Positions 59,779 to 60,371 of a stretch of 64,000 bases of DNA are shown in pieces. Origin of the DNA: Escherichia coli (lineage in GTDB: Bacteria > Pseudomonadota > Gammaproteobacteria > Enterobacterales > Enterobacteriaceae); NCBI RefSeq assembly GCF_013315695.1, contig NZ_CP054353.1. The stretch is one strand, 5' to 3'. The translations under genes and the position numbers were made by a program. Numbering within the stretch: the first letter of the stretch is position 1; each line of letters starts with the position of its first letter. Below the pieces are notes generated by a model. It was not told the origin of the DNA. It saw only the letters and a list, made by a program, of their open reading frames with translations, and ran no database searches.

Positions 59779-60068
59779 TTGTATATACAATTAGGGATGG
59801 CAATTATGCCAATGGAGTTTGAATGGGATGAAAACAAGGCCAAAAGTAATCGGGTGAAACATGGCATCCGCTTTGAAGATGCGGTGTTATTGTTTGATGA
59901 TCCACAACATTTGTCACAGCAAGAACGCATAGAAAACGGTGAGTATCGCTGGCAGACATTACGGCATCGTGGTTATTCTGGTTGCGCATACCATCCGTTT
60001 CGAAAGCGGAAATGAAATTATTCGAATCATCAGTGCACGAAAAGCAGATCGTAAAGAGAGGAATCGCT
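59779..60068 (+). pseudogene. BrnT-like (DUF497) toxin, frameshifted
   Basis: N-terminal MPMEFEWDENKAKSNRVKHGIRFEDAVLLFDDPQHLSQQERIENGEYRWQT then an aberrant tail; the expected C-terminus (...RFESGNEIIRIISARKADRKERNRYEHG) is encoded in another frame at ~59990-60070. Confidence 0.6.
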
Positions 60069-60371
60069 ATGAGCATGGTTAAACATAAACGAGGGACCTC
60101 CTCTACACTCGATGTGCAGCATGAGGCCGAACTGAAGGCGCTGGCGAATAAATCCGACGAAGATATTGATTACAGTGATATCCCACCTTCCAGCGATGAG
60201 CAATGGTCTAACGCCGAACGCGGTAAGTTTTATCGGCCATTGAAAACTCAGGCTTCGGTGCGTATTGATGCTGATGTGATGGAATGGTTGAAGCGACCAG
60301 GTAAAGGCTATCAAACTCGCCTGAACGCAATTTTACGTGAAGCGATGCTGCGCGATCAGAACAAAAAATAA
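60069..60371 (+). CDS. BrnA-like antitoxin
   Basis: 100-aa product MSMVKHKRGTSSTLDVQHEAELKALANKSDEDIDYSDIPPSSDEQWSNAERGKFYRP... directly after the toxin remnant. Confidence 0.6.
   Translation: MSMVKHKRGTSSTLDVQHEAELKALANKSDEDIDYSDIPPSSDEQWSNAERGKFYRPLKTQASVRIDADVMEWLKRPGKGYQTRLNAILREAMLRDQNKK

Follow-up and report, generated by a model that had tools for sequence, protein, structure and literature searches.

The closest functionally described relative of the locus analysed here is the BrnT/BrnA pair of Brucella abortus (PDB 3U97; Heaton et al. 2012 via PMC5086665, PMC10714953). As these secondary accounts summarise it, the toxin and antitoxin belong to the PF04365 and PF14384 families, their genes overlap in an operon that places the toxin first, and the antitoxin carries a C-terminal ribbon–helix–helix. 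The toxin is built on a four-stranded antiparallel sheet and, in the summary given by one review, requires D6, E7, K9, R41, and E78 for its RNase activity (PMC5086665). B. abortus BrnA binds to its own promoter both by itself and together with BrnT (PMC10714953, PMC5086665). A much closer match in sequence is provided by chain A of PDB 7VD7 (a 94-aa entry labelled ‘toxin’), to which the intact E. coli BrnT is ∼85 per cent identical over its full length (E 4e-52); the full-length match shows the 94–95 aa form to be the folded unit. The literature search returned no paper describing 7VD7, and a Salmonella chromosomal homologue is likewise 85 per cent identical to the intact E. coli protein. Also comparable are the orphan antitoxins described as common in genome surveys (PMC10790755, PMC7192599), which lack a working cognate toxin and sit in their original genomic context.

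In the window (the whole 64-kb stretch of E. coli DNA that was analysed), brnT–brnA is a chromosomal type II toxin–antitoxin operon with the toxin gene first. It shares with the Brucella system, so far as the secondary accounts describe the latter, the two protein families, the overlapping toxin-first arrangement, and the C-terminal ribbon–helix–helix of the antitoxin; the activity residues align, and palindromes in the promoter of the window operon fit autoregulation by BrnA. Unlike the B. abortus toxin, to which the intact E. coli BrnT is only ∼35 per cent identical (E 1.6e-4 against 3U97), the toxin gene of the window is a pseudogene cut short after residue 51, and the full-length form seen in 7VD7 cannot be encoded by this allele. 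The nearest comparison is with intact E. coli brnTA (WP_001297643.1 and WP_000063156.1, strain Ecol_448), which has the same DNA over 818 columns, the same IS1 position, and the same BrnA, whereas brnT of the window is without 11 bp. We consider the best explanation, with a probability of roughly nine in ten, to be that a recent 11-bp deletion killed the toxin gene of a chromosomal brnT–brnA module, that brnA is intact and probably expressed, and that neutral decay suffices to account for this state.

The gene order in the window is IS1, a leader of 183 bp, brnT, brnA, and then the convergent yjiA, yjiX, and btsT (Table 1). No second copy of brnTA was found in the 64 kb.

Table 1. Positions of features at and around brnTA in the window.
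Feature	Position	Strand	Basis
IS1 copy (context)	58855..59622	+	Extent by alignment; insA 58910..59185, insB frame 59104..59607
Candidate -10 (TATAAT) of the brnTA promoter, weak -35	59749..59754	+	Assigned by eye
Operator-like nested inverted repeats	59750..59807	.	Inverted-repeat search, palindrome self-match
brnT pseudogene (BrnT/DUF497 RNase toxin), frameshifted	59806..60082	+	Pfam matches, alignment to intact allele, PGAP
Junction of the 11-bp deletion (ATCGGCCTGGT lost)	59958..59959	+	Alignment with the Ecol_448 allele
Premature TGA stop of frameshifted brnT	60013..60015	+	ORF 59779..60015, sequence
Putative Shine–Dalgarno sequence of brnA (GAGAGGA), 7 nt before the ATG	60056..60062	+	Sequence; role inferred
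brnA, intact antitoxin, 100 aa, C-terminal ribbon–helix–helix	60069..60371	+	PF14384, identity to WP_000063156.1
GC-rich hairpin GGCCGCCATGTGGCGGCC between convergent brnA and yjiA	60376..60393	.	T-run scored on the - strand only
yjiA (GTPase), conserved flank (context)	60405..61361	-	PGAP coordinates mapped to the window; ORF

The brnT lesion and the fate of the toxin

The first-pass annotation had described a toxin divided between two reading frames by a small indel, and the two frames do match parts of one and the same PF04365 domain. The upstream frame covers profile positions 1–47 of 77 (E 2e-12, 47.6 bits against a cut-off of 34.5) and the downstream frame positions 50–77, including IISARKADRKERNRY (E 3.9e-6, 27.5 bits), so that no single frame holds a complete BrnT domain. 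By tblastn, BrnT residues 1–52 lie in frame 1 and residues 56–95 in frame 2 (+1). Homology places the start of BrnT at ATG 59806 (PGAP; PDB 7VD7), while position 59779 is only the mechanical TTG start of the open reading frame. Alignment with Ecol_448, which has an annotated intact brnT (WP_001297643.1; 95 aa), resolves the indel to a single 11-bp deletion; the predicted change of frame therefore stands, but its placement at ∼59950 was 8 bases off. The loss of ATCGGCCTGGT falls exactly after codon 51 and removes codons 52–54 and two bases of codon 55, which shifts the frame and ends translation after 69 residues, 51 of them native and 18 out of frame. Neither a direct repeat nor a homopolymer flanks the deletion. 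Window and intact allele show no other differences over the 818 aligned columns, which run from the end of IS1 into yjiA. Intact homologues do not share the short architecture, being 94–95 aa long. On its sequence, the brnT locus is a pseudogene of the BrnT family and does not have the status of a functional member.

Long-read assemblies often contain spurious indels, and it might be argued that brnT is really intact and its frameshift an error of sequencing or assembly. The 11 bp, however, are missing from a non-repetitive, non-homopolymer sequence. In addition, the exact junction was recovered in 23 of the 5,426 complete E. coli genomes by a 56-bp probe with the junction at its middle, a length at which intact alleles fall short of the E-value limit. 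All 23 matches are chromosomal and at 100 per cent identity, in separate assemblies from different laboratories, hosts, and countries. Five carriers were inspected (LHM10-1, HS30-1, LSN03-016011/A, CE0021a, and MSB1_4I, from China, Turkey, New Zealand, and Australia). In each of these the PGAP label is ‘BrnT family toxin, frameshifted’; BrnA is the same protein, and IS1 occupies the same place upstream. Across the 5.1 kb from IS1 to the end of the window the carriers differ from it by 0–5 mismatches, MSB1_4I being the nearest, as compared to 11 for Ecol_448, and the five checked carriers represent one shared flanking haplotype. Since the exact junction recurs in 23 genomes and every sampled carrier lies on one haplotype, the deletion is one inherited event; an assembly artefact was rejected on these grounds and has next to no chance of being correct. 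An indel introduced during assembly, which would have refuted the earlier description, is contradicted by 23 independently assembled genomes that share the deletion. As judged from these alignments, the 11-bp lesion is one that arose once in one lineage, and so recently that no other substitution marks it off from an intact allele. The frameshifted brnT is already flagged by public genome annotation and is a case of ordinary, recent gene decay.

What the deletion does to the protein can be approached through the Brucella structure and a model of the intact toxin. Through the 3U97 alignment, the residues that the review reports as needed for activity (D6, E7, K9, R41, and E78 of B. abortus) correspond to D8, E9, K11, R48, and E88 of the E. 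coli protein. The frameshifted product retains D8, E9, K11, and R48, and the conserved E88 is out of frame, so that by the residue set given in that review the product falls short of an active toxin. In an AlphaFold model of intact BrnT, which is of moderate confidence (pLDDT 74), strands span residues 4–7, 37–42, 46–55, 58–68, and 74–83, with helices at 9–19 and 86–94. Half of strand 46–55, strands 58–68 and 74–83, and the C-terminal helix bearing E88 all lie downstream of the frameshift in this model. The N-terminal strand and helix are kept, and ∼2.5 of the four core strands of the sheet are lost, again by the pLDDT 74 model. A native fragment of 51 residues without these core strands could not build the BrnT beta-sheet scaffold, and we infer from the model that the truncated BrnT would be inactive and the RNase toxin dead.

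A function for the two halves could nevertheless be imagined, if ribosomes shifted frame by +1 in a programmed way, or if two polypeptides, residues 1–51 and the product of a GTG-initiated frame of 47 codons (59939..60082), together formed a split toxin. The C-terminal frame is indeed open from a GTG at 59939 to 60082, and the N-terminal fragment holds four of the five activity residues mapped from the review. Against this, the residues 52–55 of a core strand would be absent from any frameshifted product, and the junction lacks a slippery motif just as the GTG lacks a preceding Shine–Dalgarno sequence. The intact single-frame allele is moreover the common and ancestral state (at least 1,757 genomes), which makes the two-frame layout a derived lesion. 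Programmed frameshifting and a split toxin were rejected for these reasons and appear very improbable, though a shade less so than an assembly error.

The toxin may not have been strong to begin with. Toxicity of intact BrnT in E. coli is assumed here from its family; the literature searched yielded no data on expression, toxicity, or binding for this E. coli module. At codon 9 (window 59830–59832; L013–L015 1704–1706) the window-type allele encodes E, and three other intact E. coli alleles and PDB 7VD7 have A; this residue aligns with B. abortus E7, which the review reports as important for RNase activity (PMC5086665). The segregating sites of brnT across four distinct intact alleles (4 synonymous, 5 non-synonymous) do not point clearly to constraint (p=0.09). 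Given the lack of clear constraint and the E/A polymorphism at residue 9, BrnT may possibly have been weak already ahead of the 11-bp deletion.

Expression signals of brnA

The antitoxin gene was said from the outset to be intact, and it is. Its product matches PF14384 over the whole profile (positions 1–68 of 68; E 2e-17; 63.8 bits, cut-off 26.1) and has the same sequence as WP_000063156.1, the protein found beside intact brnT. The gene lies directly downstream of brnT, with its ATG at 60069 overlapping the old brnT end (stop 60080–60082) by 14 nt. Because brnA has its own Shine–Dalgarno sequence, translational coupling to brnT should be unnecessary.

Upstream of brnT, a strict consensus promoter scan called no promoter on the + strand at brnTA, and the candidate -10 is one picked by eye (Table 1). 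Overlapping it are the operator-like repeats, whose half-sites read ATAATTG at 59750–56 and 59761–67 and CAATTA(T) at 59788–93 and 59801–07; within them are 14-nt arms at 59762–59775 and 59780–59793 and a 12-bp palindrome, TTGTATATACAA, at 59779–59790. Since B. abortus BrnA binds its own promoter, these leader repeats are plausible operators and constitute a putative BrnA binding site. On the other side of the operon, the hairpin GGCCGCCATGTGGCGGCC is likely a terminator shared by brnA and yjiA. The reading frame of brnA, its Shine–Dalgarno sequence, the promoter region, the operator-like repeats, and the terminator have all been kept in the window allele, and for this reason BrnA is probably still made from its own signals and still represses its own promoter, with its target toxin gone and nothing left to neutralise.

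Distribution of brnT lesions and the persistence of brnA

A match to the locus was obtained in 2,112 of the 5,426 complete E. coli genomes, one of which was a spurious 85-bp hit, leaving ∼2,111 carriers, all of them with brnA. In most matching genomes 775 bases of the query corresponded to 786 bases of the record. At least 80 per cent of brnT is kept in 1,780 genomes and its first 103 bp in 2,001. Besides the 11-bp frameshift of 23 genomes, an internal deletion of ∼162 bp in brnT is found in ∼221 genomes (L003 2681–3099, L004 2670–3088), and ∼109 genomes have a 288-bp deletion that takes away the -10, the operator-like repeats, and brnT codons 1–75, with Fic and GmrSD-type genes upstream (L005/L006 2480–2852). 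The signals of brnA are affected in both of the larger classes: its Shine–Dalgarno sequence is altered from GAGAGGA to GAACGGA in the ∼162-bp class, and in the 288-bp class there is no native promoter and brnA is left downstream of the fic gene.

Together the three independent lesions account for ∼353 of the ∼2,111 locus-bearing genomes (∼17 per cent). The antitoxin gene is annotated as intact in all sampled genomes with a damaged brnT, and brnT without brnA was seen in none of the 5,426 complete E. coli genomes; neither gene is present in 61 per cent of them, including K-12. Toxin loss with retention of the antitoxin had been proposed as a common decay route, and the three lesions, their frequency, and the lack of any brnT-only genome bear this out. 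These counts agree with how abundant orphan antitoxins are in the E. coli (PMC10790755) and Klebsiella (PMC7192599) surveys. The asymmetry is expected even without selection, because losing the antitoxin first would be harmful if the toxin is active. One further genome, NZ_CM129858.1 (strain SW071610; match H213), matches the 5′ end of brnT in two places (query 33–103 is listed), and this split match may be another disruption of brnT, for example by an insertion.

The frameshifted brnT, a pseudogene already labelled as such in RefSeq, matters little by itself. For one E. coli haplotype the 11-bp deletion can serve as a clean lineage marker, and the locus as a whole offers a population-scale example of toxin-first decay in a toxin–antitoxin module, with antitoxin-first loss unseen. 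It also provides an allelic series (the intact form, an orphan with full signals, an orphan with an altered Shine–Dalgarno sequence, and an orphan without a promoter) that could be used to test orphan-antitoxin function.

It might instead be supposed that at least three losses of brnT with brnA always kept reflect selection for BrnA alone, whether as an anti-addiction factor against mobile BrnT or as a ribbon–helix–helix regulator recruited to other genes, in which case loss of the toxin would have been adaptive or exploited. Were that so, the window allele would be the sole orphan form with every expression signal. The survival of brnA with all of these signals in the window allele, and its presence in all of the ∼353 genomes with a damaged brnT, can be cited in favor of such selection. 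Weighing against them is the lack of substitutions since the deletion in the window allele: with none relative to the intact allele there has been no time to decay, and the intactness of this brnA is therefore uninformative on selection. The two larger orphan classes, with an altered Shine–Dalgarno sequence or a lost promoter and operator, also speak against it, since damage to the brnA signals in the commoner orphans argues against selection for BrnA expression.

A further point in favor of the idea is that brnA shows purifying selection in alleles whose toxin is intact (12 synonymous and 5 non-synonymous sites, p=2e-5). The comparison of brnT and brnA over four distinct intact alleles (4S:5N vs 12S:5N, Fisher p=0.23) is suggestive only. 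Two orphans that share the 288-bp deletion differ in brnA by 8 synonymous and 2 non-synonymous changes, and the variants that separate them occur in mosaic fashion in intact alleles of other backgrounds. Such shared variants are ancestral or recombinant polymorphism and cannot be assigned to the time after toxin loss, and dN/dS was dropped as proof of selection on orphan brnA for this reason. Changes private to the orphans are few, ∼2 non-synonymous and 2 synonymous, the remainder being shared with intact alleles, and no purifying selection after toxin loss can be read from them.

An anti-addiction role would further call for related toxins arriving on mobile elements. Only 11 Escherichia records in the plasmid collection PLSDB have any BrnT match, and plasmid brnTA is abundant in Acinetobacter. 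The genuine modules on Enterobacteriaceae plasmids show ∼70–72 per cent identity in BrnT and 63–64 per cent in BrnA, and the nearest of them do not exceed 72 per cent (BrnT) and 64 per cent (BrnA). One such module, roughly 70 per cent identical, is carried by a 5.4-kb Klebsiella/Citrobacter plasmid. Near-identical brnTA is also present on three very large E. coli ‘plasmid’ records (AP026530.1 and NZ_CP128951.1, 655 kb; CP054241.1, 834 kb), which were left out as evidence of mobile brnTA because records of 655–834 kb are possibly chromosome fragments or chromids. The phage search gave four matches, the close one (85 per cent) being a 501-kb Salmonella enterica record and the three phage records being 33–42 per cent identical, and so turned up no relevant phage copy of brnTA.

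The one credible small plasmid with an identical module is RCS63_p (NZ_LT985269.1, L007 1–9825), a mobilizable resistance plasmid of 22 kb, and this capture of identical brnTA, at least once, speaks for the anti-addiction idea. Its chromosomal segment reads ytiA-yjiL-yjiM-yjiN-mdtM and then brnT–brnA, with identical BrnT, and adjoins sul2, aph(3'')-Ib, and aph(6)-Id (strAB); if the assembly is right, the chromosomal module was captured onto this plasmid. A single identical plasmid module means that a matching incoming toxin is possible but rare.

There is precedent for such a role in the ccd system, where chromosomal antitoxins can serve as anti-addiction modules (PMC7354431) and cross-neutralisation has been shown between the Erwinia chromosomal and F-plasmid ccd, as it has for no BrnA. 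Reviews regard anti-addiction by orphan antitoxins as generally still undemonstrated (PMC7354431), and the orphan state in the window, unlike the ccd case, is extremely recent with nothing that indicates a function. That 61 per cent of E. coli genomes have neither gene is a further point against selection for BrnA. The suggestion that the retained antitoxin gives anti-addiction against incoming modules is therefore unsupported, as there are zero substitutions since the lesion, plasmid relatives are mostly at most 72 per cent identical, and the expression signals of the other orphans are damaged. Selection for orphan BrnA in any of these forms is unlikely, though it deserves more credence than either an assembly error or a two-part toxin. 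Neutral decay of the module by contrast needs no selective benefit: an intact brnA at the present stage is what it would predict, and toxin-first loss would be the only tolerated order if the toxin is active.

Genomic surroundings

The brnTA module lies beside yjiA (window 59626–60404), where the E. coli immigration-control region has its variable edge. Its upstream neighbour differs by genome and may be IS1 with mdtM, an Mrr-like restriction endonuclease with a type I restriction–modification system, or the Fic and GmrSD-type genes; in K-12, where brnTA is absent, mrr directly adjoins yjiA. Neither BrnT nor BrnA matched any NCBIfam or PADLOC model, which leaves the two proteins with no curated link to a defence system. 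At the IS1 position PGAP annotates an ‘IS1 family transposase, programmed frameshift’ in carriers of the deletion and in intact-allele genomes alike.

Four IS1 copies lie in a 16-kb part of the window (43244–44012, 44418–45186, 57441–58208, and 58855–59622), and they are of two sequence types that are ∼91 per cent identical to each other. The gene yjiC is split between 43990–44418 and 58432–58855, with an overlap of ∼10 bp at both IS1 junctions, which indicates an IS1-mediated inversion of ∼13.7 kb (mdtM-yjiN-yjiM ... iadA-hypT-iraD-yjiC′) relative to HS30-1, LSN03-016011/A, and CE0021a. The IS1 at 57441–58208 is an extra insertion in comparison with MSB1_4I and is bordered by a 9-bp target duplication.
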